NCBI GenBank assembly: GCA_021817785.1
Contig: JAKAFY010000001.1
Span: 26,446-90,445 of the forward strand
Direction of reading: 5' to 3'
DNA from: a bacterium
GTDB taxonomy: Bacteria > Patescibacteriota > Microgenomatia > UBA10105 > UBA927
Length of the DNA stretch: 64,000 nucleotides
In this document: one piece after another, positions 4,515 through 29,869 of the stretch
Numbering within the stretch: position 1 is the first letter of the stretch
Layout of the letters: every line of letters begins with the position of its first letter
Notes under the pieces: generated by a model
Databases searched by the model: none
Told to the model about the DNA's origin: nothing
The model's input: the letters and a program-made list of their open reading frames with translations, nothing else
Program-made: the position numbers and the translations under genes

Positions 4515-5409
4515 ATCGTCGGAGCAATTTGTACCAGACCTTCAGAACCGGATTTGTCGTATTGGTCATTTTTGACGTTATTTTCCAGTAGGCAACTTCT
4601 CCTCCGGACCGGTCAAACTCTTTCAACACGGAGGACAGCGGCATGTTCTGTTCGGGAAACCGTTCCCGCTCCCAAAGCTTGGCAAATATGATAAACGAAT
4701 AAAACGACTGCAGTATCGAAAGCACCAGACCGTGCAGTCCGTCTTTATACCCGGATTGCGCGAAGTATATTTTCAGAAAATCGGACACGGGAAAACGGAT
4801 TGCGTCCGGCCAGGTTACCCGGTATTTTGCATTGACATACTTTTGCACTTCGTTTTCTATATAGATCACCTGCATTTTTTCCAGATACTGCGCTATGGAA
4901 TCATAATTGTGATGGATATAGGGCGATAGCAGCGTCGCCGTGGGACCGGTGACCGCGATATATTCATGAACGTGTTTTTGCGGGAACGACCCTTTCCCTC
5001 TGCGGAACAGTCGCAATTGCCGATCCGGCCACCACAAACCGTGCTGGATCCAACGCCCGAAAATTATGTTTTTCCGGGGAATCCAAAATCCTGAAATATC
5101 CGAGGATACCGACCGTAACCTGGTGCGAATCTCTTTGGCCAGTTCGTCCGTGACTTCTTCATCGTCATCCAGGTTCAGGATCCATTCCGACGTGGCCTTT
5201 GTGAATCCGAAATTTTTATTGACGTTGAGCATCAGATTATTCGGCTTACTATAGACATGGGGAGTATATTTCTGGGCCACCGTCACCGTATCATCGGTGG
5301 AACCGGAATCCACGACGATAAGCTCATCGGCGAGCGACCGGACCGAAGCCAACGTACGTGCCAGGCTTTTTGACCTGTTATGAGTAGATATGACAACGCT
5401 TAGGCTCAT
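4498..5409 (-). CDS. glycosyltransferase family 2
   Basis: MSLSVVISTHNRSKSLARTLASVRSLADELIVVDSGSTDDT. ATGA overlap with upstream wzx stop. Confidence 0.8.
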   Translation of the reverse strand: MSLSVVISTHNRSKSLARTLASVRSLADELIVVDSGSTDDTVTVAQKYTPHVYSKPNNLMLNVNKNFGFTKATSEWILNLDDDEEVTDELAKEIRTRLRSVSSDISGFWIPRKNIIFGRWIQHGLWWPDRQLRLFRRGKGSFPQKHVHEYIAVTGPTATLLSPYIHHNYDSIAQYLEKMQVIYIENEVQKYVNAKYRVTWPDAIRFPVSDFLKIYFAQSGYKDGLHGLVLSILQSFYSFIIFAKLWERERFPEQNMPLSSVLKEFDRSGGEVAYWKITSKMTNTTNPVLKVWYKLLRRYGRSI

Positions 5410-6854
5410 GGTAATTTACGCAGTGACCGGATAAATCCCTGTATCCGCGCACGGTCAAGCACATATACCGTCACTGCATAAAGTATAACACCCGACGCCC
5501 CCGTAACACCCAACAACGGGATTGTCCGCGGCGTATGGGGAAGAACCAGCAGGTACCACAGGCCCTGTACGACGATCCCTGCTACTGCACTCCATATCTG
5601 TTCCCAAAACGAAAACGGGACGATCTTTTTTACCTCGACCAGCACCCAGATGATCGTCAGCGATATGACGCAGAGGGCTATGGCTACTCCGTTATATCCG
5701 AACAATTTTAGTCCGATCAGGGAAAATACCCAGGTAAGGAGCGTCCACAACACCATAAAAAACAACGTCGTCTTTATCTTCCCTACCGCATTTAATGCGT
5801 TGGTAAGCGGCGTCGTCAGTCCGGCCACTGCCGCCGTGACGACAAAAAAGTAAAACGAGGTCAGCGCCGGATTCCATTTTGCGTATTTGGGGATGATGTC
5901 CACCATCGGATGTACAAAAAACAGCAATCCCATGGAAATTGGGAGCATCGTAAGCGCCAGGCCGTAAATCGTTTTTTCTATCGCTTTGCGCAGGAGATTG
6001 ACGTCATGCTGCAGGCGGGCAAACGCCGGGAATGTCACCCGGATGATGCTGTCCATGATAAGCCGCAGCGGCACCTCTGCCCATTTTTTGGCCCATCCGA
6101 TGTATCCTACCTGGGCAAAAGGCAGGGCTTTCCCCAAAAATATGGTAAATAAGTCATCTTTGAGGAGAGCCAGAAAGGAATTCATCTGGAACGGCACGCC
6201 GAACCGCAACAGGCGGTGCAGCACGTCTTTTGAAAATCCGATGGATATCTTCCACGGACGGATCATATAAATAGTCGTAAGTCCTATGATCCCGCGCGCC
6301 AGCACGCCCCAGGTAAAGCTGGTAATCCCGAATCCCCGCCATGCCAGATAGACCGTTACCACATAGAACCCGAGCGTTTCCGCGATCGTCGGGATCACTA
6401 ATTTATCAAACTGCAATTCCCGCTCCAGAAGGATGGACGGAATAGTTTTCAGCGAGGAAAGGAAAAACGATACGATGAGTGCGCGAAACAGCCAGGTTCC
6501 GGCATCGTTGAGATGGTAGAAATGAGACACAAAACTGGAGCCGATGAACGAAATGATGACCAGGATAACGACCAGAATCTGCTGGATGGTAAATGTCGTC
6601 GTGACTTCGGCATCCGTCAGCGGTTCTTTCTTTTGGACCAACGCCGCTGCCAACCCGATATCAGAAAAATATCCCAAAAACGAAATGACGGCGGACACGA
6701 CATAATACACGCCGAAAATAGACGGAGTTAAAAGAAGCGTCAGCAAAAACGTCGCGGTAAAAGCGATAATCTGCAAAAGAAATGTCCGCGTCGTCAAGGC
6801 GACGATGCCCCGGATCGACCGTTTTTTCAGTGTCGCTATATCAATGTCTTGCAT
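5406..6854 (-). CDS. wzx: Wzx-type oligosaccharide flippase (MOP superfamily polysaccharide biosynthesis protein)
   Basis: 482 aa with about 12-14 predicted TM helices. N-terminus KRSIRGIVALTTRTFLLQIIAFTATFLLTLLLTPSIFGVYYVVSAVISF is typical of the Polysacc_synt/Wzx family. Confidence 0.75.
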   Translation of the reverse strand: MQDIDIATLKKRSIRGIVALTTRTFLLQIIAFTATFLLTLLLTPSIFGVYYVVSAVISFLGYFSDIGLAAALVQKKEPLTDAEVTTTFTIQQILVVILVIISFIGSSFVSHFYHLNDAGTWLFRALIVSFFLSSLKTIPSILLERELQFDKLVIPTIAETLGFYVVTVYLAWRGFGITSFTWGVLARGIIGLTTIYMIRPWKISIGFSKDVLHRLLRFGVPFQMNSFLALLKDDLFTIFLGKALPFAQVGYIGWAKKWAEVPLRLIMDSIIRVTFPAFARLQHDVNLLRKAIEKTIYGLALTMLPISMGLLFFVHPMVDIIPKYAKWNPALTSFYFFVVTAAVAGLTTPLTNALNAVGKIKTTLFFMVLWTLLTWVFSLIGLKLFGYNGVAIALCVISLTIIWVLVEVKKIVPFSFWEQIWSAVAGIVVQGLWYLLVLPHTPRTIPLLGVTGASGVILYAVTVYVLDRARIQGFIRSLRKLP

Positions 6855-7590
6855 AGGATTTATTTCTCCATGGCCGCGTTACAAAAAGCCGCCACAGTCC
6901 TTTGAGATCGCCAATCGCCGTCCGCATGACCCGGACCGTCGATCCGGGATTGTCGATCCATGTCACCGGTTCTTCATAGATCCTCAGTCCCTGCTTTTCC
7001 CCGACGAGCAGCAGTTCGGAATCAAAAAACCATTCGTTATCCACTATATCAGGAATAAGTTCATTCACCACACGCCGGGTTACCGCCTTAAACCCGCACT
7101 GCGCGTCGGTAAAATGGACAAAAAAGAACAGTTTGATAAGCATGATGTATCCTTTTGACGTGATGTTGCGCATCAGCCCCCTGCCGTAGACACGTGAGCC
7201 TTTTGTGTTGCGGCTGCCGATCGCTATATCGAATCCGCGTTCCAGTGCATGGAGAAGCGGCGGAAAATGCTGTAAATCCGTAGAAAGGTCTATGTCCATA
7301 TAGGCGACATACTCATCCCGGCATCTGCTCCATACGTACTTTACCGCCCGACCCCGCCCTTTTTCCGAAAGATGTACGAACGAAACGCCGGTGTGTGCGG
7401 CGGCAATTTTTTTGGCGATGGCGAGTGTGCCATCCGTTGATGCGTTGTCAGCGATCGTCACGTGCCACGAAAAGTCCGTAAGGTGCTTGGACAAAAATCC
7501 CACGAGGGTCGCAACGCTTTGCATAAGTTCGCGTTCTTCGTTATACACCGGCAAAACGATATTAACCCTTGGTTTTTCTTTGTTTGACAT
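6841..7590 (-). CDS. polyprenol-phosphate sugar synthase (DPM1/GtrB-like GT2)
   Basis: Likely start MSNKEKPRVNIVLPVYNEERELMQSV...TIADNASTDGT...DIDLSTD...QCGFKA. This matches the dolichol-phosphate mannosyltransferase-like motif set. Confidence 0.8.
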   Translation of the reverse strand: MSNKEKPRVNIVLPVYNEERELMQSVATLVGFLSKHLTDFSWHVTIADNASTDGTLAIAKKIAAAHTGVSFVHLSEKGRGRAVKYVWSRCRDEYVAYMDIDLSTDLQHFPPLLHALERGFDIAIGSRNTKGSRVYGRGLMRNITSKGYIMLIKLFFFVHFTDAQCGFKAVTRRVVNELIPDIVDNEWFFDSELLLVGEKQGLRIYEEPVTWIDNPGSTVRVMRTAIGDLKGLWRLFVTRPWRNKSYARH

Positions 7591-9229
7591 AGATATACAA
7601 CAGCAATACAAACGAAACTCCAGATATAATATTCCCGAGTATCCGTACGGGAGTATCGGTGAATTTCGCCGTGATCACCGACTGCCCCGGTCCAATTTCG
7701 AGCGTCGGCAAACCGGCGGTAATACCAGGGCGCACTTCCGTGCCGTTTATGTAATATTTCCACCCCGGAAAATACGCGATGTTTATCCGTACAAGCGCCG
7801 ACGACGTAGATTCGACAACAGACTGGTTTTCAACGGCAGTCGCGCTGATCGGCGTTACGGAAATCGGCTGACGTGACTCTATTGTATCAGATACCACGTG
7901 GGACTCGGTTACGGGGCGCACTATGGCTTTCGGCAGGTATTCATCGGATATCTTTGACGCGCGCCAGCGGATGTCCCGGGACGACTCAAACGACCCTGAC
8001 GCCGGCGTATACAGATATTGCGGAACAAACCATTTTGTATTCATGCCGATCACTGCGGCGATGGCGCCAATGGTCACTACGGTCCGCCACAAAGGATGCC
8101 GGATAAGCGTTACGACAACGCCGGAAAGGGCCGCAAGTCCGAACAGGGCAAGCGCCAAAAACCGCCACGGGTACTGCAGATATGCAAACATCGGCAGTAT
8201 CCGCCACACCTCCAGGGAGAATTGGAGCGTGAGAAATATACCGATCACCGTGCTGAGGAACGCGACAAAAAGAAACCTCCGGTTTATTTTCTTTAGCGCA
8301 CCGGTCATCCACGCCAGTATGGCCACGAGCGCGAGTATGATGTGTATCTTTCCTATCATAAATGACAGACCGTCATTCAAACATCCGGGCGCGGATCCGC
8401 CGAATCCCCAGGCAGAACTCCAAAGCTGCACCATGCAGACGAAATGATCCGCATAATTAGCGGTGGCACTGACCTGGGCCGCCACATCGGTAAAACGCAT
8501 TTCCGAAAGTGCGGGCAACCAGAAAAACGAAGCCATGCCCAAACCGAGCAGGATCCACCGGAGATGCGCTGTATATTCTTTCTTGGCCGCATCGCGGCGG
8601 AATACTCGGACCAACCAGTATATGGCAAGTCCTATTCCCAAAAATACCGTCGTGGCATACCCCAAAAGGGTATGGGAAAGGATACTCCCGAAAAGGCCTA
8701 CGGCACCGGCGACCATAGCCCGGCGCTCACGCCCGCGGACGCCGTTCCATACGAGTGCGTACAGAATAAGCGGCCAAAACAGCAACTCCCAGTACTCGCC
8801 GACCGCACCGCGGACATATATCTGTACCGCATGATACGGCGCAAAAAGATACAATACTGCGGAAAGCGCTGCTGCCTGCCAACCGACCAGGGAAAACAAA
8901 ACGGCATATACTGCCGCGGCCGGAAGCACCATGCCGAGTCCGAACATTATTTTGGTCGATGTAAGGGCCGGAACCCCCAGTGCGTAAAAAAGCCCTCCGA
9001 CATAGTACGGCAACGGGCCGTAGAAATTGTAGATGGGGTACCCGTATCCGTATCCCAAATCCGCTACCCACCGCACGGGGAACTGACCTTCCTTGAGCAC
9101 CCTGCCCATCTCCACCACGCGCTCGACCTGCGTATTATCATGCATCGGGAAATATCCCCGGGATACCAGCGGCCGCCAGGCAACATAAGACAAAAGCAGT
9201 ATGCAGACCAATGGCAACAGGCGTTTCAT
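7562..9229 (-). CDS. polytopic membrane protein, YfhO/GT-C-like putative glycosyltransferase (paralog B)
   Basis: 555 aa with many TM helices. N-terminal MHDNTQVERVVEMGRVLKEGQFPVRWVADLGYGYGYPIYNFYGPLPYY loop motif is shared with the adjacent paralog. C-terminal ~130 aa is soluble and beta-rich. Confidence 0.75.
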   Translation of the reverse strand: MKRLLPLVCILLLSYVAWRPLVSRGYFPMHDNTQVERVVEMGRVLKEGQFPVRWVADLGYGYGYPIYNFYGPLPYYVGGLFYALGVPALTSTKIMFGLGMVLPAAAVYAVLFSLVGWQAAALSAVLYLFAPYHAVQIYVRGAVGEYWELLFWPLILYALVWNGVRGRERRAMVAGAVGLFGSILSHTLLGYATTVFLGIGLAIYWLVRVFRRDAAKKEYTAHLRWILLGLGMASFFWLPALSEMRFTDVAAQVSATANYADHFVCMVQLWSSAWGFGGSAPGCLNDGLSFMIGKIHIILALVAILAWMTGALKKINRRFLFVAFLSTVIGIFLTLQFSLEVWRILPMFAYLQYPWRFLALALFGLAALSGVVVTLIRHPLWRTVVTIGAIAAVIGMNTKWFVPQYLYTPASGSFESSRDIRWRASKISDEYLPKAIVRPVTESHVVSDTIESRQPISVTPISATAVENQSVVESTSSALVRINIAYFPGWKYYINGTEVRPGITAGLPTLEIGPGQSVITAKFTDTPVRILGNIISGVSFVLLLYIYVKQRKTKG

Positions 9230-9233
9230 ATCG

Positions 9234-10757
9234 TTATGCGGCTAAACGCTTCAGAACTATTCCGTAGACAATCAGGCTGACGACAGAAACGATATCGGCC
9301 ATAAACCGTTCCGGAGTTTCCCGGAATACCGCCACAATCTGATGAACGCCGGGAGGCACGGTGATCCGCATGAATCCGAATGGATTCTGATGGTCGATGG
9401 GCGTCAATACGCCGTCTATGGTCACCCCCCAACCGGGATAGTACAGTTTGTTGATCTGGAGTACGCTTGTTTCTTTTACCCATGCGGTCGTCTTGATGGC
9501 TTCTTTCGGAAATATGCGCATGCTCAAATTTGCATCGCCGCTGATGACGTCGATGGTGTCCAGAGTACGCTGCTTCGATATTTCCGACACCCACCGGGGC
9601 ATGTATTCATTGGCTACCGTGGTCGTCCCTTCGTTGGTCGTGTAATACCCGAGCGGCTGTTGGACAAACGTTATGGATTTTTCGGCGGACATGACCGGGA
9701 TGATCCACAACGCCGCAAGTATCAGAAGAAAAAGGACCCGTTTCCTCCCCGAAAGCGCCTCCGCCGTCCGCGAAACTACCCACGGTCCCAATAACACCGG
9801 CAGGACGAGAAACCGGTACGGGAACTGGACCAGTTTAGAAAGCACCGGCATCTGCCATAGGACAGCGCTTACCGGAAGCGCTAACGCGTATCCCAGCGCG
9901 ATCAATACGATAAGCGTCATATCAAACATGCGGTGTTTGCTCTTTAATCCCAATGCCAACGCGACGCACAAAAGCGTCGGTATCCCCAACAATACGGCCT
10001 GCGGAAGCGTTATGAAATATTGCGACGGATCGGAAACGGTCACGTTCTGAAATTGCACCAACGACTGTTCAAATATGGCAGGTGCCCAGAAAAATGCGGA
10101 CAGCCCGATACCGAGTGCCATGTGCCAGATATATCGCGCAGGCTTGGGTTGCGTCAGAAGAATCACGCCAAAGGCGGAACCAAACAGCAGCGCGGTCGTA
10201 TTGTGCGAAACGATAAGAAATGCATATGCCAACGGCATCAGCCAATGCAAACCTGTGGATAGGCTGAGCATCAGTACAGCGGCCGGCAGCATGGCCAATA
10301 TCTCTCCTACCGAACCGCGATGATACATGTCATACAGCACGTACGGCGCAAAAAGAAAGCTCATGGCTCCCACAAAGCTGTTTTGCGCGCCAAACCTCCG
10401 GCGCAGTGCAAAAAATATCCCGACCGCACTTCCCGCGACCGACACGCCCAGGATAACTTTTACGGCGTTGGGGAACGAAATACCGGCAAGATGCAGCAAT
10501 GAGCCGATGTACAAAAATCCGGGATACAGAAAATTCGATACCGGATACCCGTAACTGTTATTGAGCCGCCCGATGAACCGGACGGGAAACTGGCCGGAAG
10601 ACAGGCTCTGATAAAATGCGGACAACCGGATAATCATCCATCCGCCGTCATCGGATACAAAAAATCCTGGGTGAAAAAGCGGCCAGAGCACCAACAGCGA
10701 GGCTGCTACGACAGCCACTACCCATCCCCAGGGGACGCCGGTATGTTTTTTACTCAT
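9234..10757 (-). CDS. polytopic membrane protein, YfhO/GT-C-like putative glycosyltransferase (paralog A)
   Basis: Start MSKKHTGVPWGW with ATG at 10757 forming an ATGA overlap with the upstream stop. The motif FYQSLSSGQFPVRFIGRLNNSYGYPVSNFLYPGFLY is paralogous to 7562..9229. Confidence 0.75.
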   Translation of the reverse strand: MSKKHTGVPWGWVVAVVAASLLVLWPLFHPGFFVSDDGGWMIIRLSAFYQSLSSGQFPVRFIGRLNNSYGYPVSNFLYPGFLYIGSLLHLAGISFPNAVKVILGVSVAGSAVGIFFALRRRFGAQNSFVGAMSFLFAPYVLYDMYHRGSVGEILAMLPAAVLMLSLSTGLHWLMPLAYAFLIVSHNTTALLFGSAFGVILLTQPKPARYIWHMALGIGLSAFFWAPAIFEQSLVQFQNVTVSDPSQYFITLPQAVLLGIPTLLCVALALGLKSKHRMFDMTLIVLIALGYALALPVSAVLWQMPVLSKLVQFPYRFLVLPVLLGPWVVSRTAEALSGRKRVLFLLILAALWIIPVMSAEKSITFVQQPLGYYTTNEGTTTVANEYMPRWVSEISKQRTLDTIDVISGDANLSMRIFPKEAIKTTAWVKETSVLQINKLYYPGWGVTIDGVLTPIDHQNPFGFMRITVPPGVHQIVAVFRETPERFMADIVSVVSLIVYGIVLKRLAA

Positions 10758-12277
10758 AACGCTTGAACACGTGGCGCCGTCACACGATAAAACCGAAGCT
10801 TCCGATCCGTACGGTTTCCTTTTTGGTACTCCCCGATGAGTGCCAGAGGCCATCCGGCGGGAGCCACCTGTGATTCATTCAGGATAAGATATGTTGGTCT
10901 GGACAGCGCTTCTTCCTGTATGCTGTCGGGTATCACGTTCGGCAAGGGCCAGATTCCTTTTATTTTTATATTCGGATTATCCACAAGATATATCTCGATG
11001 GAATACGGCATAAGCCCGAATGTCCCTTCCGTGTATACGTTTATCTTTTCGTGACGCACCTGTTCCCGAAGATACGACACTACTTCCGGCACGCCGCCGC
11101 CTGCCGGCCAGTCATTCATATACTGATATTGGTCGGATAACGGGATGGGTGCTGCGATCGGATTGGTGACGATCATATACGAGGTCATGGCAGCGGGACT
11201 AAGGAGGAGCACGACGAGCGCCAACCGGACCAGGGGGCGTTTGATCATATCCCACAGTTCCATGAAACTTTCCGCAGCCACAAGCAGCAGCGGGATAGTC
11301 ATAAACAAGGTAAACCGCGGATACAATATCTTGGCAAAGTTTGCCAGGGCGGCAAACGGCATCGCCCACCAGACATACAGCAGCCACCGCTCCCTCGCTT
11401 TTCCCCACCGGGTAAACAGCGGTACCAGGGTGACGACAAATACCGGCAGGGTGAGATAATTTCTCAGCCAGTCAAACATGCCCTTGAGGTTTCCCGCAAA
11501 AAAACGGAACGGCTGGTTAAGCCATTCCCGCGGGCTGAATATAAAGACGTTGTCTTTCTGCGAAACGATGTGAAAAAACGGGGATAACCGCAATACGCTA
11601 TAAAACACCTGGGACAGCACTGCCGAAACGATGACCAGTCCAGCCCATCGTGCCAGCCGGTTGAATCTGTGTTCTTTGCGCCAGTCAAACAGGATGAGGG
11701 TCAACGGCATCGCGTACAAGCTCAAAAAACCGGAACTTTTGTTGAGCATGCCGCACCCTAACACCATACCGAGGAGAAGCGCTATATCAAGCCGGACTTT
11801 CCGCACCAGAAGCACGGCCAGATACAGGCTCCAGACGGAAAACAGGGAGACCATGGAGTCATAAATCGCCATGCGGTCGTACCAAAGCGTAAACGGAATG
11901 ATCACGTATAATACGCCGGTAAACCATGACACCCGCCTGTCTCGAAAAAGTTCCCACGAAAGCACGCATACGCCGATAAGCGTACCGATCCCGGCCACCA
12001 CGGATGTCAACCGCCCCACGAACAGTGGGTCTACGCCTTTGAGTACTTTGAGTAACACCATCATGACCCAGGTAAACATCGGCTGTTTTCCGTCGGTCAG
12101 CGATATGAAGCGCCAATTGGGATCCCGCATCCCGATTTGCGACCAGCGGATGTAGATGGCTTCATCGGTAAATATAGGTAACTTCGTCAGATTCAGGAGC
12201 CGGGTAACAGCATACAGCGCGATAAGCGCTCCGAAACCAAGCAGTATGCCCCACCAAAACCGCTTTTTGTTTGCCAT
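10754..12277 (-). CDS. ArnT/PMT-family (GT39/GT83-like) membrane glycosyltransferase
   Basis: Likely start MANKKRFWWGILLGFGAL at ATG 12277, with GGAG 5 nt upstream and a TATAAT-like box. The motif LPIFTDEAIYIRWSQ is the conserved DE loop of polyprenol-phosphate-dependent GT-C enzymes. 507 aa with about 12 TM. Confidence 0.8.
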   Translation of the reverse strand: MANKKRFWWGILLGFGALIALYAVTRLLNLTKLPIFTDEAIYIRWSQIGMRDPNWRFISLTDGKQPMFTWVMMVLLKVLKGVDPLFVGRLTSVVAGIGTLIGVCVLSWELFRDRRVSWFTGVLYVIIPFTLWYDRMAIYDSMVSLFSVWSLYLAVLLVRKVRLDIALLLGMVLGCGMLNKSSGFLSLYAMPLTLILFDWRKEHRFNRLARWAGLVIVSAVLSQVFYSVLRLSPFFHIVSQKDNVFIFSPREWLNQPFRFFAGNLKGMFDWLRNYLTLPVFVVTLVPLFTRWGKARERWLLYVWWAMPFAALANFAKILYPRFTLFMTIPLLLVAAESFMELWDMIKRPLVRLALVVLLLSPAAMTSYMIVTNPIAAPIPLSDQYQYMNDWPAGGGVPEVVSYLREQVRHEKINVYTEGTFGLMPYSIEIYLVDNPNIKIKGIWPLPNVIPDSIQEEALSRPTYLILNESQVAPAGWPLALIGEYQKGNRTDRKLRFYRVTAPRVQAL

Positions 12278-12334
12278 ACTCCGATTATATCGAAAAACGT
12301 GAAATCTTGCTCGTGTAAATATGCTACACTGAAA

Positions 12335-12667
12335 ATGATGCAGATCGGATTCCATCATATTTATCACCGGAAAAACTCCCGGCAGCAACCGTACACCGTT
12401 TCCCATACGGGGCTGGCCGGTTTATTTGACAAATCGGCCTTTATCATGGGAGTTGTCTCGGTCGCGGCAAACCTTCCCCAGCTCATCGCCGTCTGGACGC
12501 GCCCGAATATCTCCGGCGTATCCGTCATCTCGTGGATCGGATTTTTTCTGGGGTCGGTATTCTGGCTTGCCTACGGCCTGGTCCACAAGGCCAAACCGAT
12601 TATCGTCATGAACGGCATGCTTATCGTGGTGCAGGGACTTGTCGTCGTGGGGCTGTTGCGGCACTGA
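12335..12667 (+). CDS. SemiSWEET / PQ-loop family small sugar transporter
   Basis: ORF 12299..12667 starts on GTG; the internal ATG at 12335 is more plausible. About 110 aa with 3 TM. FIMGVVSVAANLPQLIAVWTRPNISGVSVISWIGFF contains the PQ motif at the end of TM1. It is the only plus-strand gene in the 22-kb cluster and its 3' end overlaps the convergent gene by 47 nt. Confidence 0.6.
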   Translation: MMQIGFHHIYHRKNSRQQPYTVSHTGLAGLFDKSAFIMGVVSVAANLPQLIAVWTRPNISGVSVISWIGFFLGSVFWLAYGLVHKAKPIIVMNGMLIVVQGLVVVGLLRH

Positions 12668-13790
12668 CGGGCAACAGCGCGGACAGCAATGCGAGCGCGA
12701 CTCCGGCCAAGATACACGGACTTTTCCACCACTGTTCGGTCGCGTTATACTCACCAAAATACAGATACGGGGCATAGCTTACGAGCAAACCGAAAGAAAC
12801 GATGGCGGCAAATCTGGTGAGTTTGGTATGTATCGGAAGTACCGCCACAAACGGCACGATCCATACCCAGTACCAGGGCAAAAATTCTCGCTTCAAAAGG
12901 ACCAGACCCAGGACGACAAACATGGCAATCACCATCCAATGGATGCTTCGCCGAAGAAGCAGTACGGGGATCAGAACGATCGTGACTGTCTTGGCTGCGA
13001 TAGAAAACGCAAGCCACAGCCATGCGGACCAGCGGTCTTTTGACACATACGCCCATACGGCAAGCATCGCAAAAGCGGAAAGTACCACGTCGTTATGTGC
13101 GCTGACTAAAGATTCGGCAAGGATAAGCGGATTTAATGCAAATACAGCAAGCCCGAGTGCGGCGTTTCCGGCATCCGTTTTTTCCACGACCTTTCCTACC
13201 GCCCACGCACACAACAGATACCACCCCGCAACCATGCCTTTCATCGCAAACAGCGTCGGCACAAAATACCCGAATCCCAGAATATACGGCACGAGCGTCA
13301 TGCCGATCCAGAGCGGCGCATATGCGGTGGTCAGATGCGTCCAGCGCATGAAATTCGTCCAGGGATCCACCCCGGAAAACAACAGTGGCGTTACGACATA
13401 GGGGTTTTGGTGATATACCAGCACCGTTTTCGCCGTAAACATATAGTTAAAAAAATCATAGGAAAATGCCGCGGGGTAGGAAAACACGACGATCGCAGCG
13501 ACCAAAAAGACAATACGCCACACATCCCTTTGGTTGAGCGTATTCCGCTTCACGGCGGATAACACCATGCCGTACAGGGCAAACAGCAGGAAAAGTATGC
13601 CGATATACATGCCGGCGGCAAGCGGCCGCTGATAATACCCGACGTGCTGGAATGCTTTTTCTACTGTCTGGACGACGCTCGATCTGGACAGCGTCAAATT
13701 CAGATCGACCTGCGTATAGCTAAATAACAATAACGCAATCGAAGCGGCGATGTATCCGAAAAAAATAATATGCTTCGTCTTCATATTCAT
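12621..13790 (-). CDS. polytopic membrane protein, possible GT-C fold glycosyltransferase (DUF2029-like)
   Basis: Likely start MNMKTKHIIFFGYIAASIALLLF. About 390 aa with about 11 TM helices and aromatic-rich periplasmic loops (YDFFNYMFTAKTVLVYHQNPY). Family assignment is tentative. Confidence 0.55.
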   Translation of the reverse strand: MNMKTKHIIFFGYIAASIALLLFSYTQVDLNLTLSRSSVVQTVEKAFQHVGYYQRPLAAGMYIGILFLLFALYGMVLSAVKRNTLNQRDVWRIVFLVAAIVVFSYPAAFSYDFFNYMFTAKTVLVYHQNPYVVTPLLFSGVDPWTNFMRWTHLTTAYAPLWIGMTLVPYILGFGYFVPTLFAMKGMVAGWYLLCAWAVGKVVEKTDAGNAALGLAVFALNPLILAESLVSAHNDVVLSAFAMLAVWAYVSKDRWSAWLWLAFSIAAKTVTIVLIPVLLLRRSIHWMVIAMFVVLGLVLLKREFLPWYWVWIVPFVAVLPIHTKLTRFAAIVSFGLLVSYAPYLYFGEYNATEQWWKSPCILAGVALALLSALLPVSAATAPRRQVPAPR

Positions 13791-13798: not shown

Positions 13799-14548
13799 TT
13801 ACCTGTATTTCCCCCGCATCGCGTTCCAACGGATCAGCAGGATATCGCGGAGTCCCTGGAGAGAATCCTTGATCGGATTGACGCGCCGCGTTTCCACATA
13901 GTGCCATTCCACCGGGACCTCTTGAATCGAATACCCCAACTGTTTCGCCAAAAACAGCACCTCGATATCAAATCCCGCGGTCACCATGGCCCCCTGGGTT
14001 TTCTGCGGACGGCCGTATAAGCGGAGTTTGGAGAATATTTTTTTTGCGACGTTTGCTTCAAACGCTTTGAACCCGCACTGCGTGTCCGTAATGCCTTTGA
14101 GTCCCAAAAACAATCCCCTGAGGAACATAAATCCCCGCGCCATGATGATACGCGAGAACGGCGCGCCTTCACGGTTCCCGTTACGGGAGCCTATGACGAT
14201 ATTCTTTCCCCTGGCAAAATACGGCAGGAGTTTCTCCAGTTCCGCCATGGGAGTGGCCTGGTCAAGATCCGAAAACAACACGATCGATCCCTTGGCTGCC
14301 GCTACGCCGGAAACGACGGTGCCTGCTTTTCCCATGTGCGGGTTGTGGATGACGCGGAACCCGGCGTTTGCCCGTGCGAATGCTTCGAGAAGCGCCGGCG
14401 ATGCGTCTTTGGAACCGTCATCCACGATGATGACTTCCCACGTATATGTTTGCTGGGTAAGGTACCGGTTTACCTTCTCGAGCGCGCCCAACCGGATGTT
14501 GGTTTCTTCGTTATACGACGGGATGACGACGGATAGATACGGTTTCAT
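13799..14548 (-). CDS. polyprenol-phosphate mannose/glucose synthase (DPM1-like GT2)
   Basis: Start MKPYLSVVIPSYNEETNIRLGALEKVNRYL...IIVDDGSKDAS...DLDQATP...QCGFKAF. ATGA overlap with the upstream gene. Confidence 0.85.
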   Translation of the reverse strand: MKPYLSVVIPSYNEETNIRLGALEKVNRYLTQQTYTWEVIIVDDGSKDASPALLEAFARANAGFRVIHNPHMGKAGTVVSGVAAAKGSIVLFSDLDQATPMAELEKLLPYFARGKNIVIGSRNGNREGAPFSRIIMARGFMFLRGLFLGLKGITDTQCGFKAFEANVAKKIFSKLRLYGRPQKTQGAMVTAGFDIEVLFLAKQLGYSIQEVPVEWHYVETRRVNPIKDSLQGLRDILLIRWNAMRGKYR

Positions 14549-16113
14549 TTCATGGTTCCTTTGTAGTGAACGAGTTTGAATATCGTGACAAATGACACAT
14601 GCCACTGCCCCGCAATGTCCGCGCGCCCGAATCCCGCTATTTCCCACAACGAATCCCCGAGCGGTTTGCAGTCTGCTTTTTCACAAACGATGATAAGCTG
14701 GTCCGTCACGGTTTTGCGGTCGGGATCGACTGCCGTATTTTCTATCGTGACGGGCGCCCGTTTCCATAATTCAAAAAAGTATCGGTATGCATGGTCGGAA
14801 TTCCCTCCGGTCATCAGCGCGAAATTAAACGGTTTGCCGTCGGTTTTGGAAAGCGCTGCCGCGGCGATCGTACGCATCTGACCGAGCTGGTTATTCGGAG
14901 TGGACAAAAACGGCCTGCCCTGCCAGTTCAGATACAAAAGCCCAGACAAAAGGACGACGGCGATACCCGCGCCGATTTTTTTCGCGGACAGGAACCGCAG
15001 AACCAATGCCGTACACAAAAACGGCACCGCATAAAAGAGGCCGAAATAATAGTCATAAATGCCTTTTTTATAAAATCCGAACAACGTAAGCGGGACAAAG
15101 AACCAGATCAGCACCAACACCAATCCTTTCTGCCACCCGTCCGGATGTTTTTTGCGGATAAGCGACAGCGCAAAAACAAAGAGAGATGCCGCCATGACGG
15201 CAGTGACGGATGCGGGCCAGAGCCATGTCCCTATGCCGTGTATGTTCCCCAGCTGTTCCGGCGGAGGCAGACGGAATACCAGCCTGCCAAACACCCGGAA
15301 GGCAACGTCCGTGACCGTCGTCATAAACGACGACGATGCGCCGGTATCTTTCCCTTCCAGTACGAACCGCACGATAGAAATGGTGTTGGGAAATCCGTGC
15401 CGCACTTCAAACGCCAGAAACGGCGCGTATCCCACCAGAAACCCCGCAATACCCAGCGCGTAGTACCGCACCCAGGTCCATGCGCGTCCGTAGAGTAGGT
15501 ACCACACTCCCACGACCACAAAGAGAAAGAGAAAAAGGTAATGAAGCTGCAGCCCTATCCCCAAAATCACGCCGATCCAAAACAGCAGCCCAGGCTGTGT
15601 ATGAACGACGCTTTTCCACAAAAGATACATGAGAAGTACGGCAAAAAACGGCACGGGGTTGGGATTCCAGGATGACCGGGAATACGCGATGACCAGCGGA
15701 GACAATGCATACAGACCGGCAGCGGCAAGTCCCACCCAGGCATCAAACACATCGTGACCGAACCGGTAGACCAGATAAATCGTCGCTATGCCAAACAGCG
15801 CCACCATGACCGCCGCACCCGAAGGATCCAGCCGGAATAGCCACACAAACGGCAGCATGAAATAGTAGTAGATGGGTCCTAAGAAAAATCCGCCGACGGA
15901 CGCGTTCGGGCCAAGCAGCGTAAATTTGTGATTGACGATCATGTGGAGGATGACCAGCATGTCCCGCCCCTCATCCCCCAAAAACGTCATGTACTCGGAT
16001 ATCCTGTACAGACGAAGATACGACCCCACCGCGAGGATAACGGATAAAAGTGCCGTCGGGACGAACTGGCGCAAACGTTTATACCATTGCATAAAAGAAG
16101 ATGTATCGGACAA
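14545..16113 (-). CDS. ArnT/PMT-family (GT39/GT83-like) membrane glycosyltransferase
   Basis: 522 aa. N-terminal LRLYRISEYMTFLGDEGRDMLV carries the DE-containing first periplasmic loop typical of dolichyl/undecaprenyl-phosphate sugar transferases. Many TM helices. Confidence 0.8.
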   Translation of the reverse strand: MSDTSSFMQWYKRLRQFVPTALLSVILAVGSYLRLYRISEYMTFLGDEGRDMLVILHMIVNHKFTLLGPNASVGGFFLGPIYYYFMLPFVWLFRLDPSGAAVMVALFGIATIYLVYRFGHDVFDAWVGLAAAGLYALSPLVIAYSRSSWNPNPVPFFAVLLMYLLWKSVVHTQPGLLFWIGVILGIGLQLHYLFLFLFVVVGVWYLLYGRAWTWVRYYALGIAGFLVGYAPFLAFEVRHGFPNTISIVRFVLEGKDTGASSSFMTTVTDVAFRVFGRLVFRLPPPEQLGNIHGIGTWLWPASVTAVMAASLFVFALSLIRKKHPDGWQKGLVLVLIWFFVPLTLFGFYKKGIYDYYFGLFYAVPFLCTALVLRFLSAKKIGAGIAVVLLSGLLYLNWQGRPFLSTPNNQLGQMRTIAAAALSKTDGKPFNFALMTGGNSDHAYRYFFELWKRAPVTIENTAVDPDRKTVTDQLIIVCEKADCKPLGDSLWEIAGFGRADIAGQWHVSFVTIFKLVHYKGTMK

Positions 16114-16147: not shown

Positions 16148-17263
16148 TTATTTCTTCCATATTACCTTGGAATATATGACGTAATTCCATACCATGATGA
16201 AGGCGGTGCCGAGAAGAAAAAAGTCGAAATACCACCGGTCCCCGAACAGACGGACGCCGAGCGCTATGGTCCCCGTTTGTATCACAATCACCCCGAACGC
16301 ACTCGTCGCGTAAAAATGCAGCAATTTCGTAACGTATTGTCCGGCTCCGGAAATTTTTTTGTGGCGGAATGTCCAGAGATTATTTAAGTTATAGTTCGAA
16401 AATATGGCGACAGCCGCCCCCACCAGATTCGCGTACGTCGCCGACATATGTGCTTTGTGGAGCAGTACCAGTATGCCTGCGTTGAGGACAAATCCTATGC
16501 CTCCTACGACCAGGAATTTACCGAACGAACCGTGGATAAATTCTTCTATTCTCGCCAGGGCGATATATCTATAAATATTGAAAATATATTCCGCCGGGGC
16601 GATTTTGGAATGCCCGTACAACCGGTCCGTAAAATGAAACGGGATTTCGCGGACGATTGCGCCGTGATGGATCGATTTATGCAAAAACGCGATTTGGAAT
16701 ACGTAGCCGCTGTATTGTTCCATTTCCCGGTGCGTTGTGTCGTAAAAATGCCTGGTGTACGCGCGGTACCCGCCGGTCCAGTCGCGGACGTTGGGGTGCC
16801 AGAGTCCGAAGCGTACGATGTTGTTTCCGACGATGCTGTAAATTTTCCGTATGAGTCCCCAATTTTCCGGAATCGCGCCTCCGGGGATATACCGGCTGCC
16901 CACGGCAAACGTGGCGCCTTTTTCGATTGCTTCGAGCAACCGGGGGGCGACTGAAGGATCGTGGGACAAATCCGCATCGATCTGCAGCACGACGTCGGCA
17001 TGCATGTGCTCAAACGCTTCCGTCATACCCCGGAGGATCGCTTTGCCCAGGCCTTCTTTTTTTCCGGAGATGAGATAGACGTTTTTGTGCGTTTTCTGAT
17101 ACGCCTTGACGACGGTGGCCGTGCCGTCCGGAGAGGTATCGTCGACGACGAGGTAGGAAATGGTGTACGTTTGTTTCGTGCCAAACGCATCCGCTAATTT
17201 TGTCAGAAGGACGCGAATATTTTCTCGTTCGTTATACGTGGGAATGACAACGACAACATTCAT
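16148..17263 (-). CDS. polyprenol-phosphate mannose synthase (Ppm1/DPM1-like GT2) fused to C-terminal GtrA-like membrane domain
   Basis: MNVVVVIPTYNERENIRVLL...VVDDTSPDGT...QIDADLSHDP, followed by a 4-TM C-terminal GtrA-like segment (FLVVGGIGFVLNAGILVLL...WNYVIYSKVIWKK). Confidence 0.85.
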   Translation of the reverse strand: MNVVVVIPTYNERENIRVLLTKLADAFGTKQTYTISYLVVDDTSPDGTATVVKAYQKTHKNVYLISGKKEGLGKAILRGMTEAFEHMHADVVLQIDADLSHDPSVAPRLLEAIEKGATFAVGSRYIPGGAIPENWGLIRKIYSIVGNNIVRFGLWHPNVRDWTGGYRAYTRHFYDTTHREMEQYSGYVFQIAFLHKSIHHGAIVREIPFHFTDRLYGHSKIAPAEYIFNIYRYIALARIEEFIHGSFGKFLVVGGIGFVLNAGILVLLHKAHMSATYANLVGAAVAIFSNYNLNNLWTFRHKKISGAGQYVTKLLHFYATSAFGVIVIQTGTIALGVRLFGDRWYFDFFLLGTAFIMVWNYVIYSKVIWKK

Positions 17264-24252: not shown

Positions 24253-24409
24253 ATAAGTACTCCTTTTCTTAGTGACACTTAACGAATATATGAGTTTAGT
24301 GTCACTTAGACCCGCCGCTCAACCGTTCTTTGTGACGTGTACGAATAGTACTGAAAAGTCGCAAAGCAAAGTTAGGCGGACAGATATTTTTATACCTTTT
24401 ATAGTGGTA

Positions 24410-24730
24410 TCACGAATATATGGGCGTCGCAAGATCCCGTTTTCCGTTCACGGGGATATCCAGAAGCATGCCCAACGCGTTGGCGACCGTGCACCCCACT
24501 CGCAGCCCGGTAAACGAGCCGGGACCCAAAAACACGGAGATATCGGTAATATCCGAAAGCGCACGCGAGTGCTCGTGCAACAGTTCCCCGATAAGGGGCA
24601 GCAGCGTCTGGGACTTTAACATCCTGGACTCTTTCTTTTTTTCAAATGTCCCGCCGTCCACGGTGAGTGATACCCGTGCGGTATCTACGGCAGAAGTATC
24701 GATAAACAGTATGACCGGTGTATGGTTCAT
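24410..24730 (-). CDS. tsaB: tRNA threonylcarbamoyladenosine biosynthesis protein TsaB (short form)
   Basis: MNHTPVILFIDTSAVDTARVSLTVDGG...LLPLIGELLHEHSRALSDITDISVFLGPGSFTGLRVGCTVANALG, the YeaZ/TsaB N-terminal lobe. Only 106 aa. Confidence 0.7.
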   Translation of the reverse strand: MNHTPVILFIDTSAVDTARVSLTVDGGTFEKKKESRMLKSQTLLPLIGELLHEHSRALSDITDISVFLGPGSFTGLRVGCTVANALGMLLDIPVNGKRDLATPIYS

Positions 24731-24735
24731 GGCGA

Positions 24736-25329
24736 TTATCCGCTGTCTGAGCCGTCCAGCATCTGGCGGCTGTAGGTGAGTTCCAGCAATTTCTCCAGTA
24801 AATAAAACCGTGTGTACGATTGTTTTGCTGCATCCGATCCCATATGCCCTTCATTCTCGCGCAGTATCAGCGTTCCACCAAGGCGTTTCCATAAATACAG
24901 CCCCTGCTTTTCATCGCACCTCCACGGATCCGCACTTGAATTGATGATGATAATATCCCGCGCGTTTTGACCCATACGCTTCCAGTTATAGCGCTTTTTG
25001 AGCATCGGCTCAGTCGATTCCTTTTTGAGCCACCTGGAGTTGCCGAAAGCTGCGACAAAAATCGCTTTGTATACCGGAGACCTCAATTGTTCTAATACGC
25101 TGAGAAGCAACGCACCCCCGAGGGAGTGGCCGATAAGGATAGTTGATTCGGAAAATTTTCCGTGTTCGACCACATAGGGCAGCCAATTTGTAAGATCCGG
25201 TTTTTCCGGCACGGGCAACTGCGGCACCCATACACTATATCCGCGACCTTCCAGAAACCGCTGTATCGACGGATACCAAAACGATTTCGGCGTACTGTAC
25301 CCTCCGTGGAGAATAATGGCGTTTTTCAT
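24736..25329 (-). CDS. RBBP9/YdeN-family alpha/beta serine hydrolase
   Basis: MKNAIILHGGYSTPKSFWYPSIQRFLEGRGYSVWVPQLP...LIGHSLGGALLL (GHSxG nucleophile elbow)...DPW. Paralog of 40043..40585. Confidence 0.75.
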   Translation of the reverse strand: MKNAIILHGGYSTPKSFWYPSIQRFLEGRGYSVWVPQLPVPEKPDLTNWLPYVVEHGKFSESTILIGHSLGGALLLSVLEQLRSPVYKAIFVAAFGNSRWLKKESTEPMLKKRYNWKRMGQNARDIIIINSSADPWRCDEKQGLYLWKRLGGTLILRENEGHMGSDAAKQSYTRFYLLEKLLELTYSRQMLDGSDSG

Positions 25330-27866: not shown

Positions 27867-28508
27867 TTAGCCCTTAATTTGTTTCCTGAATTCATTCTTA
27901 ATATCAAGTATTAGCTTTTCATACTTATCTTTTACGGCTTTGTTTGTTTTAATAGTTGATTCTGCATCCTTTTTTGTGAATCCCAATTGCTGTGAGCTTT
28001 GAGGCGATGTGCTTCTGATATCAATAAGTTTCAGTTTTCCAAATCTAAATTGCTCAAATTGACTAAATAATTCCATTAATTTTTTGTAATGCGATTGTTC
28101 TATAAGTAGTGTATTCTCTTCAACAGCATTTTTCGTTAATCTTATCTGCTCAGAAAATGATGGGATTTTTTCAGGAGATGGGTTGTTCCAAAGCGCATCT
28201 GCCAGCTGTTTGGTTACCATTAAAATTTTCCAAAGATTATTATAGAGTTCAAATTGTTTTTCTGAGTATCTTAAAAAGAGTACTTTTGTTTTTTCCAATT
28301 CAGTTTTTGTTTTTTCTAGTTCGGTTTGATACTTATTTTTCAAATCTTCTAATCCTCGTTCATGTGAATTTTTATACTTTTCAAGTATCCCCTGAGAGAT
28401 AATTTCACCTAACCATTTTGCAATCGCAATAATTATTGCTCCAGCCCCAAAAGTGGAGATAAAAAATGCTGCCACGATATTAAATGCGCTTTGGAATGAT
28501 ACATTCAT
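27867..28508 (-). CDS. hypothetical protein, N-terminal TM plus coiled-coil (low-GC island gene A)
   Basis: ORF 27867..28541. Start at MNVSFQSAFNIVAAFFISTFGAGAIIIAIAKWLG (28508) avoids overlap with gene B. Lys/Glu-rich coiled-coil (ELEKTKTELEKTK). AT-rich codon usage unlike flanking genes. Confidence 0.5.
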   Translation of the reverse strand: MNVSFQSAFNIVAAFFISTFGAGAIIIAIAKWLGEIISQGILEKYKNSHERGLEDLKNKYQTELEKTKTELEKTKVLFLRYSEKQFELYNNLWKILMVTKQLADALWNNPSPEKIPSFSEQIRLTKNAVEENTLLIEQSHYKKLMELFSQFEQFRFGKLKLIDIRSTSPQSSQQLGFTKKDAESTIKTNKAVKDKYEKLILDIKNEFRKQIKG

Positions 28509-28510
28509 AA

Positions 28511-28867
28511 TTAATAATTTAGATTGTTTGCCCTTAACCAATCGTGTAGTTGATCGGGATCAACATTGTTAAACCCTAAATATCTGTTCTTAGTTAAATA
28601 TCCAATATGCTGCCCATTTAAATAAATTGCTGGGGGAGTACTTGTATAAGGGTTAAACGGACTTAATGAGGAATACTGACTTCCGTAGGTTCCATATTTG
28701 TTAAAAATTGATGTTGCGGAGTATTGATTCCCATAATATCCATAAGGGTTGGAAATTGATTCAGCATCAAAATTATTAAGCGAAAGTTTTCCAAGATATT
28801 GACCGTCATTAGCAAGTAAAAACGATTCATGGTTTTGAGCTTTTGCAAGGATTTGCTGAAATTCCAT
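28511..28867 (-). CDS. hypothetical protein with NPYG/Tyr-Gly-rich repeats (island gene B)
   Basis: 118 aa with SNPYGYYGNQYSATSIFNKYGTYGSQYSSLSPFNPYTSTPP repeat-like region. No family recognized. Confidence 0.45.
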   Translation of the reverse strand: MEFQQILAKAQNHESFLLANDGQYLGKLSLNNFDAESISNPYGYYGNQYSATSIFNKYGTYGSQYSSLSPFNPYTSTPPAIYLNGQHIGYLTKNRYLGFNNVDPDQLHDWLRANNLNY

Positions 28868-28885
28868 ATAATAATTTTTAAAACG

Positions 28886-29578
28886 CTAAGCCATCTCTTT
28901 ATCGTATTTTTGGGTTAATAATTCAGCTTCTATCCAGTGAGTTGTTAATTTTATCAATTCTTTTAGATTACTTATGTCTTTATCTGTCCAAGTTCGATAG
29001 TAATGAACCTCATCGTTTCCTAGCCACGCCGCTCTCTCAGTACATTTTTTAATATTTGTATCATCTATCAGAGCTAAGACAGGTGCGAGTGTCTTATATT
29101 TTTTAATTTCCTCTGCTCGTTCAGGGTATTTTACAGATAGGTAATCTTTAACTAAGTACTCCAGACTCTTCCTATAGCCTCCACCACAAACCTCATCTAA
29201 ACCCATTGATTCTGCTATATAAGCTTGATTATATATTCTTCGAAATTTAGGCGACGTCATGTTAATTTCATTAGGAAATTCAATTGGTTTAAAATACTCA
29301 GGGACTCCAACCTGGGCCAATGTAAAATAATCGCCATGACGTCCCACCTTGGAATAATATGCAATAAAATATCTCTTACATTCGTTGCGAGAACACTTAA
29401 AAACAACTTCAACTATTTCGTCATAGTCCCATAACGCACCCAAATTTTGAGAATTCTTAAATATTGGACTTGTTGGTTTTCCACACCTCCCGCAGATATC
29501 AGGAAAGTCGTTTATCGTAATTGAACCACGACTTCCTTCATTAATCTCTAACGATATCAAAGATGTATCTCTAGCCAT
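28886..29578 (-). CDS. zinc-ribbon plus DUF4145-like domain protein (island gene C)
   Basis: 230 aa. N-terminal Cys4 (CGRCGKPTSP...CSRNECKRY). C-terminal ERAAWLGNDEVHYYRTW resembles the DUF4145 R-x-GN-x-x-H core. The assignment is tentative. Confidence 0.5.
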   Translation of the reverse strand: MARDTSLISLEINEGSRGSITINDFPDICGRCGKPTSPIFKNSQNLGALWDYDEIVEVVFKCSRNECKRYFIAYYSKVGRHGDYFTLAQVGVPEYFKPIEFPNEINMTSPKFRRIYNQAYIAESMGLDEVCGGGYRKSLEYLVKDYLSVKYPERAEEIKKYKTLAPVLALIDDTNIKKCTERAAWLGNDEVHYYRTWTDKDISNLKELIKLTTHWIEAELLTQKYDKEMA

Positions 29579-29777
29579 ATAATTAGCAACATCGTACCAC
29601 TACTTAACCTAAAGTCAATTGTTTTTAAGTAATGGTTTCGCGCCGCCGCGTTAATGCGAGTCAAGGGAGCGTTCGCGCACTCGTTCAATCCTTCACATCC
29701 GTGAAAGACATCAACCCGCCACGCTGATTAGTTTTACACCTCGTCCCATAGGCTACCTCGTCCAAGTTTATTAGTTC

Positions 29778-29798
29778 GCACCCCCGGTGTGTGGGCAG
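29778..29798. repeat. GC-rich palindromic element copy 1 (variant CGCACCCCCGGTGTGTGGGCA)
   Basis: Read in the divergent C/D intergenic region. Shares the GCAC..CC..GG..GGTGTG..GGG core with copies 2-4 but has the central CCGGGGG inverted to CCCCCGG. Confidence 0.5.
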
Positions 29799-29869
29799 AT
29801 AACTCCCATAGAGGTCATATTGTTAGCAGATGAAAAGATGTAATTTAGAGCGTATAATTGCCCTTTACT

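Follow-up and report, generated by a model that had tools for sequence, protein, structure and literature searches.

The question raised by this locus is why a gene for a small sugar-transporter-like protein should lie, on the opposite strand, in the middle of a bacterial glycosylation gene cluster. The gene, a member of the SemiSWEET family, is carried by positions 12338 to 12667 (plus strand) of a 64,000-nucleotide stretch of contig JAKAFY010000001.1 from a member of the Patescibacteriota, referred to here as the window. An earlier interpretation made from the sequence alone (the original prediction) described a SemiSWEET-like PQ-loop transporter encoded antisense within a glycosylation operon and took its position as a hint of sugar uptake or recycling feeding the pathway, or of antisense regulatory interplay. 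The comparisons described below uphold the identity of the protein and argue against its coupling to the cluster. We consider it probable that the gene encodes a homodimeric sugar uniporter of the SemiSWEET type, belonging to a clade of bacteria from the Candidate Phyla Radiation (CPR) and archaea from the DPANN group, that it serves general sugar uptake, and that it came to lie in the cluster by a lineage-specific insertion.

The listed plus-strand open reading frame (ORF) extends from a GTG codon at 12299, the start of its longest form, to 12667 (122 amino acids, aa) and contains in-frame ATG codons at 12335, 12338 and 12446. The best start appears to be the second of these, 12338, which gives a protein of 109 aa plus stop beginning MQIGFHH. 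This choice was set by comparison with four orthologues having the same flanking genes (loci L001, L047, L083 and L128), whose N termini, M-Q/H-T-G-[FM]-H-H, align to this ATG, while a 107-aa relative (P0002, 58% identical) retains the N-terminal extension MQxGFHHxxHR. The gene of about 110 aa originally placed in 12278–12667 therefore stands as a gene, while the alternative start at 12335 (110 aa) is replaced by that at 12338 and 12278 is the first base of the upstream spacer. The proposed geometry of the locus was borne out. On one side, the divergent minus-strand gene for an ArnT/PMT-like protein (PMT_2) starts at 12277, a position backed by orthologue ORF starts and a conserved TATAAT box, leaving the predicted 57 nucleotides (nt) if the SemiSWEET begins at 12335 and 60 nt if it begins at 12338; on the other, 12621 is the last position of the minus-strand MptA_B/GT87-like gene, and 12621–12667 is therefore common to the two 3′ ends, the 47-nt convergent overlap that had been described. 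The gene is also the sole plus-strand gene in some 22 kilobases (kb), as the other credible genes from the window start to 29578 all lie on the minus strand. One stretch before 29578 has no clear gene call, a 483-nt gap at 24253–24735, where ORFs of 106–119 aa compete on both strands (24272–24619 and 24420–24779 on the plus strand, 24410–24730 on the minus strand).

Between SemiSWEET orthologues the proportion of nonsynonymous differences is 0.10–0.34 against 0.65–0.89 for synonymous differences, which are saturated, and the closest pair gives a dN/dS of 0.04. Judged by these substitution patterns the ORF is a real gene under strong purifying selection; a spurious ORF is excluded by this selection together with the existence of orthologues, the family profile matches and the predicted fold. 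The public annotation of the same DNA (the window and locus L002) presents a different picture, with a SemiSWEET of 73 aa beginning at 12446 and a PMT_2 protein of 550 aa beginning at 12406, and public collections contain the exact 73-aa product from ATG 12446, the contigs that carry it reaching 151 kb. Both public calls are doubtful, since the 73-aa form lacks the first half of transmembrane helix 1 (TM1) and the 550-aa PMT_2 runs across the spacer. Orthologue alignments favour a PMT_2 protein of 507 aa (start 12277) and a SemiSWEET of 109 aa (start 12338), and at locus L208, which has the same 73-aa under-call, the ORF nonetheless matches the family profile over positions 1–108. Both public gene calls are thus probably wrong, the SemiSWEET being cut short and PMT_2 over-extended. 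A hairpin resembling a terminator (GGCCGGTTTATTTGACAAATCGGCC, then a T-rich tail) occurs at 12415–12439 of the plus strand, inside the SemiSWEET coding sequence and just 5′ of the annotated ATG 12446; it was dismissed as a terminator, the number of such sites in the region being that expected from shuffled sequence.

The identification of the protein as SemiSWEET-like and of the PQ-loop type is supported concordantly by Pfam profiles, fold and motif. The two profiles named in the original prediction both match above their curated cut-offs, MtN3_slv (PF03083) with 34.5 bits against 23.7 over residues 46–114 of the 122-aa ORF, and PQ-loop (PF04193) more weakly and by a narrow margin with 23.8 bits against 22. 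When solved structures were searched, a profile built from the window protein and two close relatives retrieved SemiSWEETs only (4rng at 3e-9), and a profile of 68 clade sequences matched the Vibrio SemiSWEET 4qnd at 2.6e-19 (72.6 bits). An AlphaFold (AF2) model from the 68-sequence alignment, which replaced an earlier one from three sequences with a predicted local distance difference test score (pLDDT) of 68, has a mean pLDDT of 86.4, residues 31–110 averaging more than 90. It shows the single triple-helix bundle that had been anticipated (helices 26–55, 64–83 and 87–109, preceded by a disordered N-terminal tail of about 25 residues), and this bundle superposes on SemiSWEET protomers. The best 15 matches of the model to the PDB in Foldseek are all SemiSWEET chains, with TM-scores of 0.87–0.90 and root mean square deviations (rmsd) of 1.3–1.5 Å to 4rng, 4qnc and 5uhs (0.90 and 1.3–1.4 Å for 4rng and 4qnc); structures of the mitochondrial pyruvate carrier (MPC) come next as weaker matches. 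The predicted ANLPQL motif is present, its Pro47-Gln48 codons (12476–12481, plus strand) specifying a PQ hinge motif in TM1 that is conserved in the clade. Trp76 (12563–12565; in TM2) and Asn92 (12611–12613; in TM3), the predicted sugar-pocket residues, occupy the aligned positions of the pocket in 4rng, 4qnc and 4qnd; between them lie Tyr79-Gly80 and His83-Lys-Ala-Lys-Pro87. The spacings of 29 residues from the Pro to the Trp and 16 from the Trp to the Asn are the same as those of P21(-Q22), W50 and N66 in the Escherichia coli protein EcSemiSWEET, where the roles of these residues were tested by mutagenesis, the proline kink acting as a hinge, Trp and Asn lining the sugar pocket and the pocket Asn being essential for sucrose uptake (PMC4309421; for the pocket also PMC5972207).

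Comparison with characterized systems places the protein among the SemiSWEETs while marking it as distinct. The three-helix bundle, the P/W/N spacing, the Y-G following the pocket Trp and the Pro preceding TM3 are common to the window protein and the SemiSWEETs of Thermodesulfovibrio yellowstonii, Leptospira biflexa and E. coli (4RNG, 4QNC and 4X5M/N; TM-scores 0.87–0.90, rmsd 1.3–1.5 Å), but identity to these is only 23–27% and the D-x-S of their first loop is G-V-S in the window protein. The best sequence match to the clade profile is the SemiSWEET of Vibrio sp. N418 (4QND, 9KON), which shares with the window clade the PQ hinge, the pocket Trp and Asn, a G-[VL]-S-x-x-[ST]-W after TM1 and a Y-G-x-x-H-K after TM2; its fold agrees with the model at a TM-score of 0.76 and an rmsd of 1.8 Å, yet it is about 26% identical to the window protein and has no counterpart of the roughly 30-residue N-terminal tail with its many His and Lys. 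The eukaryotic PQ-loop proteins MPDU1 and cystinosin have the superfamily and the PQ motif in common with the window protein but consist of seven helices in two repeats, whereas the window protein is a single three-helix unit of 109 aa and the better match to MtN3/SemiSWEET.

How widely such proteins occur was addressed by an exhaustive HMMER search of 1.84 billion representative sequences, which returned 1620 proteins with E ≤ 1e-3, of which 357 reached E ≤ 1e-10. Among the best 150 matches most are 100–115 aa long and aligned from about profile positions 1–10, indicating that the N-terminal tail is a feature of the clade, whose consensus reads MxxGxHHxHKRK...D...PQLxxIW....GVSxxSW......FWxxYGxxHKEKPII. 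Clade loci were located with a degenerate DNA pattern for W-x2-YG-x2-H[KR][DE][KR]P over species-representative genomes, yielding at least 120 loci; the clade hidden Markov model (HMM) confirmed 115 of the 120 pattern matches listed, although the window protein itself (HKAKP) is not matched by this pattern. Among these 115 confirmed loci, CPR/Patescibacteria labels account for 33, DPANN labels for 45, unspecified ‘archaeon’ or ‘bacterium’ labels for 16 and Candidatus Altimarinota for one. The other 20 are labelled ‘uncultured Gammaproteobacteria’ (11), ‘uncultured Methanosarcinales’ (7), Pseudomonadales (1) and Bdellovibrionales (1), and all but the last come from third-party (TPA) assemblies of metagenome-assembled genomes (MAGs), many of them co-assembly bins. 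When the labels were checked by nearest-neighbour identity, the ‘Methanosarcinales’ sequences proved nearest to DPANN sequences (44–75% identity) and the ‘Gammaproteobacteria’ ones were ambiguous. Judging from these labels and identities, this large clade is found mainly in CPR bacteria and DPANN archaea. CPR and DPANN sequences are intermixed by similarity, best matches often crossing domains at 40–52% identity, which hints at inter-domain transfer. Clade proteins carry the public names ‘PQ loop repeat’ or ‘MtN3 and saliva related’. SemiSWEET transporters in DPANN genomes have been mentioned in passing in one survey (PMC10936187), and a 2018 survey saw archaeal SemiSWEETs in Euryarchaeota and Thaumarchaeota only (PMC5972207); our literature search found no paper on the clade, on its tail or on SemiSWEETs in Patescibacteria.

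Across 449 unique clade sequences the hinge and the region around the pocket Trp are close to invariant (P47 97%, Q48 100%, W76 98%, Y79 100%, G80 96%), as are D31 (93%) and H83 (97%), the last figure being inflated by the DNA pattern used for the search, which biases conservation at residues 83–87. The basic tail occupies residues 1–31 of the window protein (MQIGFHHIYHRKNSRQ...FD; 12338–12430, plus strand), is rich in His, Lys and Arg, has a pLDDT of 50–57 over its first 20 residues and is absent in crystallized SemiSWEETs. In 68 clade members the mean number of Lys plus Arg is 6.5 in the tail (with a further 3.5 His), 0.7 in the TM1–TM2 loop, 1.9 in the TM2–TM3 loop and 0.3 at the C-terminal end. 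The basic residues of the clade are thus found in the N-tail and the TM2–TM3 loop, in contrast to the SemiSWEETs of Thermodesulfovibrio and Leptospira, whose TM1–TM2 loop is basic with 3–4 Lys/Arg.

The cluster in which the gene lies is rich in glycosyltransferases (GT). The divergent neighbour (10754–12277, minus strand, 507 aa) is a PMT_2 glycosyltransferase of the GT-C type (PF13231, 38.4 bits) and the convergent neighbour (12621–13790, minus strand, 389 aa) a GT-C membrane glycosyltransferase of the MptA_B family, GT87-like (PF26314; GT87 E 4e-4). Upstream in the cluster, likewise on the minus strand, are a GT2 resembling polyprenyl-phosphate-hexose synthases (13799–14548), a second PMT_2 GT-C (14545–16113) and, at 16148–17263, a fusion of a GT2 with a GtrA/DPMS transmembrane domain, while a Wzx-like polysaccharide flippase (Polysacc_synt_3, 176.5 bits) is encoded at 5406–6854 (minus strand). 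The cluster comprises five or six GT2 genes, and it also encodes an epimerase/dehydratase, UDP-glucose dehydrogenase, RmlD, RmlB and RmlA. Five GT-C-like membrane proteins follow one another, a PTPS_related protein (7562–9229), one with no Pfam match (9234–10748) and those at 10754–12277, 12621–13790 and 14545–16113; they are interleaved with the polyprenyl-phosphate-hexose-synthase-like GT2 genes in an order kept in at least ten related CPR contigs.

Such surroundings could suggest that the SemiSWEET is coupled to the cluster, importing or recycling sugar for RmlA/B/D, the UDP-glucose dehydrogenase and the glycosyltransferases, the more so as the nucleotide-sugar genes of the cluster start from glucose-1-phosphate and other bacteria are reported to have SemiSWEETs beside RmlA/RmlB genes and genes for polysaccharide synthesis (PMC5972207). 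A survey from the side of the SemiSWEET argues otherwise. Genes were called in the confirmed loci and 215 immediate neighbours from about 110 loci were scanned against Pfam; the commonest neighbour families were TatD (5), methyltransferases (4), ribosomal L27 (3), NUDIX and HAD, while glycosyltransferases were rare and not enriched, GT1/GT4 domains occurring twice. The most frequent single neighbour in one neighbour scan was a DNase of the TatD family (5/110). When twelve proteins of the window cluster were compared by phmmer with all ORFs of 204 clade loci, the cluster was found, besides copies of the window, only in L001, L047, L083 and L128, of which L047 and L083 come from two Candidatus Gottesmanbacteria MAGs (UBA5942 and UBA6580), the basis for calling the lineage Gottesmanbacteria-like. 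The association with polyprenyl-phosphate-sugar synthases and GT-C proteins is confined to this Gottesmanbacteria-like syntenic group and absent at some 190 other clade loci. In the next-closest relatives, 45–47% identical, the adjacent genes are unrelated ones, encoding for instance a PAP2 phosphatase or proteins without matches, and in other Microgenomates a P-type ATPase, a GT1 or a GT2 adjoins the SemiSWEET homologue. The pairing with the P-type ATPase is, on present genome comparisons, apparently a second and different conserved arrangement within Microgenomates: in L031 (3922–6624, a Daviesbacteria MAG) and L138 (8325–11036, a metagenome contig of 754 kb) the genes for the SemiSWEET homologue and for a P-type cation ATPase of 900 aa overlap convergently, by 18 nt and 12 nt respectively. 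In L138 the upstream gene encodes a GT1/GT4 glycosyltransferase.

A second survey, from the side of the glycosyltransferases, leads in the same direction. Homologues of the MptA_B-like protein fall into more than 120 clusters (49–71% identity), from which six on long contigs were chosen irrespective of any SemiSWEET. All six keep the gene order epimerase, GT2-GtrA, PMT_2, GT2, MptA_B, PMT_2, unknown membrane protein, PTPS_related. Two of them (L208 and L209) have a SemiSWEET antisense between MptA_B and PMT_2, bringing to seven the loci with the gene inside the cluster (the window, L001, L047, L083, L128, L208 and L209). In the other four (L210–L213) the flanking genes are separated by 7–51 nt and a six-frame HMM search for a SemiSWEET was negative. 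As the same cluster occurs with and without the gene, the SemiSWEET is evidently an optional insert in one sub-lineage of a conserved cluster, which by this comparison works without it and of which it would not be an operon part. The proposed coupling to glycosylation is therefore not supported here, given the absence of glycosyltransferase enrichment among neighbours, the four gene-free clusters and the promoter element of its own, on the opposite strand, that is described below; any sugar importer would, moreover, feed glycan synthesis generically and so confer no specificity. The fixed position of the gene in seven loci, while the protein diverged to 50–59% identity, speaks for coupling, which we regard on balance as unlikely.

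A more specific role within the cluster would be that of a prokaryotic analogue of MPDU1, a eukaryotic PQ-loop protein required for using Dol-P-Man and Dol-P-Glc, with the window protein translocating polyprenyl-phosphate-hexose for the adjoining GT-C enzymes. MPDU1 is classed in the same superfamily and tied to the use of lipid-linked sugars (PMC3281891), the Pfam PQ-loop cut-off is passed, the gene lies amid a polyprenyl-phosphate-hexose-synthase-like GT2, an MptA_B-like GT-C and a PMT_2 GT-C, and a monoolein head group fills the pocket in a crystal of EcSemiSWEET (PMC4309421). The protein is nearer, however, to SemiSWEETs than to PQ-loop proteins proper, no tendency to lie near GT-C or GT2 genes is seen across the clade, and our literature search found no link between SemiSWEETs and flippases. 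The cluster also already contains candidate lipid-linked-sugar translocators in the GtrA domain and the Wzx-like protein, flippases that are likewise small or multi-pass membrane proteins inside glycosylation clusters beside GT2 and GT-C proteins but whose folds are unrelated to SemiSWEET. With the neighbour survey and the insert-free clusters (four of the six relatives sampled) these candidates rule out an MPDU1-like flippase as the principal interpretation, and we attach hardly any likelihood to it.

The transcriptional arrangement of the locus is consistent with an independent gene. Alignment of the five orthologous spacers (the window, L001, L047, L083 and L128) reveals three blocks invariant in all five. 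The first, TATGCTACACT (12320–12330, plus strand), is an extended −10-like element (TGnTACACT) that ends 7 nt before ATG 12338 and 6–10 nt before the ATG across orthologues. The second, GATATAAT (12284–12291, minus strand; the plus strand reads ATTATAT(C)), is a putative −10 box of the PMT_2 gene and lies 6 nt before its ATG at 12277, while a GTGAA block (12299–12303) lies between the two. A TATAAT box 6–9 nt before the PMT_2 ATG is found also in three of the four insert-free clusters (L210, L212 and L213). A generic sigma-70 scan of the region, which requires a −35 match and has none there, reported neither −10 element. From their conservation and position we read the blocks as two putative back-to-back promoters, each 4–10 nt from a start codon, which suggests leaderless or near-leaderless mRNAs for both genes in this CPR lineage. 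With a −10 element of its own and a TATAAT box kept with or without the insert, the SemiSWEET would form a separate transcription unit and PMT_2 would re-initiate regardless of the insert. Opposite in strand to the glycosylation genes, and preceded by this element, the gene would not belong to the glycosylation operon.

The same arrangement bears on the suggestion of a regulatory role, by which transcription of the SemiSWEET, running antisense over the 3′-terminal part of the MptA_B-like gene, and antisense read-through of the cluster across the SemiSWEET would act by interference or an RNA duplex. The gene splits an otherwise single-strand cluster, the terminator scan found no terminator-like site between the SemiSWEET and MptA_B-like genes, and the convergent overlap is present at all seven insert-carrying loci. 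Its extent nevertheless varies, from 47 nt in the window to 29, 29, 23, 20, 17 and 14 nt in the relatives, and its sequence is not conserved, a pattern that genome compaction would explain no less well than regulation; elsewhere in the clade the gene has short convergent overlaps with unrelated genes (that for the P-type ATPase is one), as is typical of compact genomes. The PMT_2 TATAAT box, besides, is present whether or not the insert is, and strong purifying selection on a protein of a widespread family would make the coding function primary. A mainly regulatory role is therefore very unlikely.

These considerations lead us back to a general sugar uniporter as the preferred explanation. The 109-aa protein is one triple-helix bundle in a TM1-TM3-TM2 arrangement and, by analogy with every solved SemiSWEET, would pair as a homodimer, allowing low-affinity diffusion of mono- or disaccharides down their gradient; the Pro-Gln kink in TM1 would be the hinge, and the pocket formed by Trp and Asn would lie on the dimer axis. 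No second member of the SemiSWEET family is encoded within the window, which fits a homodimer. In the reduced organisms of the CPR and DPANN such a protein would most plausibly serve as a general sugar-uptake channel, and in a Gottesmanbacteria-like lineage the gene, together with its own extended −10 element, was probably inserted between the MptA_B-like stop codon and a PMT_2 promoter that already existed.

Several observations weigh against this explanation. All three NCBIfam SemiSWEET profiles (SemiSWEET_1/2/3, NF037967-9) score far under their cut-offs (48.6 against 80, 45.4 against 100 and 22.6 against 200 bits), although the similarity is nonetheless significant (E 7e-13 to 1e-4), and the CPR/DPANN clade is, as far as these scores indicate, outside the curated NCBIfam subfamilies. 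The papers found contain no transport assay of any clade member, and physiological substrates are uncertain even for characterized SemiSWEETs (PMC5972207). While the window protein and its orthologues have the pocket Asn, this residue is present in 46% of the clade and Tyr in 30%, so that a single sugar substrate may not be common to the whole clade; the split points to sub-clades that differ in substrate. A functional link particular to the lineage is also conceivable, given that the gene stayed between the same two neighbours as the protein diverged to about 50% identity. Finally, the basic N-tail and near-neutral first loop predict, by the positive-inside rule, an N-in/C-out orientation, the reverse of that of crystallized SemiSWEETs such as EcSemiSWEET, which is N-out/C-in with an intracellular TM1–TM2 loop (PMC4309421); this prediction is a sequence statistic. 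An inverted orientation, if true, would be a distinctive trait and need not change the function of a symmetric uniporter.

The variability of the pocket also raises the possibility that a small metabolite other than sugar is carried, as among relatives with this triple-helix-bundle fold the PQ-loop proteins transport amino acids and MPC transports pyruvate. Work on gene context suggests substrates of SemiSWEETs beyond sugars (PMC5972207), the MPC structures are the next-best fold matches, and the clade-specific invariant residues D31, G60, S62, W66 and H83 have no assigned role. Yet Trp and Asn are retained at canonical spacing in the window protein and all its orthologues, and in both sequence and fold the protein matches sugar-transporting SemiSWEETs far better than MPC, making a non-sugar substrate for this protein distinctly unlikely. 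A bolder scenario would combine an inverted (N-in/C-out) variant of the clade, a cytoplasmic His/Lys tail gating the channel in response to pH, metal or a partner, a role as the principal sugar gateway of ultra-small symbionts dependent on sugars from their hosts, and, in the Gottesmanbacteria-like lineage, co-option to supply the cluster, reflected in the fixed place of the gene there; it is speculative and we think it unlikely.

Elsewhere in the window, the G+C content falls to 0.36–0.42 at 28001–32000 and 62001–64000 against about 0.52 in the remainder. The first of these regions, which may be acquired DNA, contains ORFs without Pfam matches (27867–28541 and 28886–29578), a plus-strand AAA_28/deoxynucleoside-kinase-like gene (29858–30502) and a gene for a Peptidase_C39_2 protein (31840–33042). 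At the window start a minus-strand frame of at least 801 codons (1–2404), running off that edge, covers an ORF at 780–1313 that is probably spurious. A tRNA-Glu (CTC) at 61933–62007 (plus strand) is the sole RNA gene that ARAGORN and Rfam detect in the window.

As posed, a SemiSWEET channel gene that lies inside a glycosylation cluster and is dispensable to it is an ordinary finding. The wider interest lies in the clade, which with its basic, His-rich tail is uncharacterized in the literature found. CPR and DPANN organisms have few recognizable sugar transporters and depend on external nutrients. If this clade were their main route of sugar entry, a protein of 109 residues would offer a simple target for the study of carbon acquisition in ultra-small symbionts.

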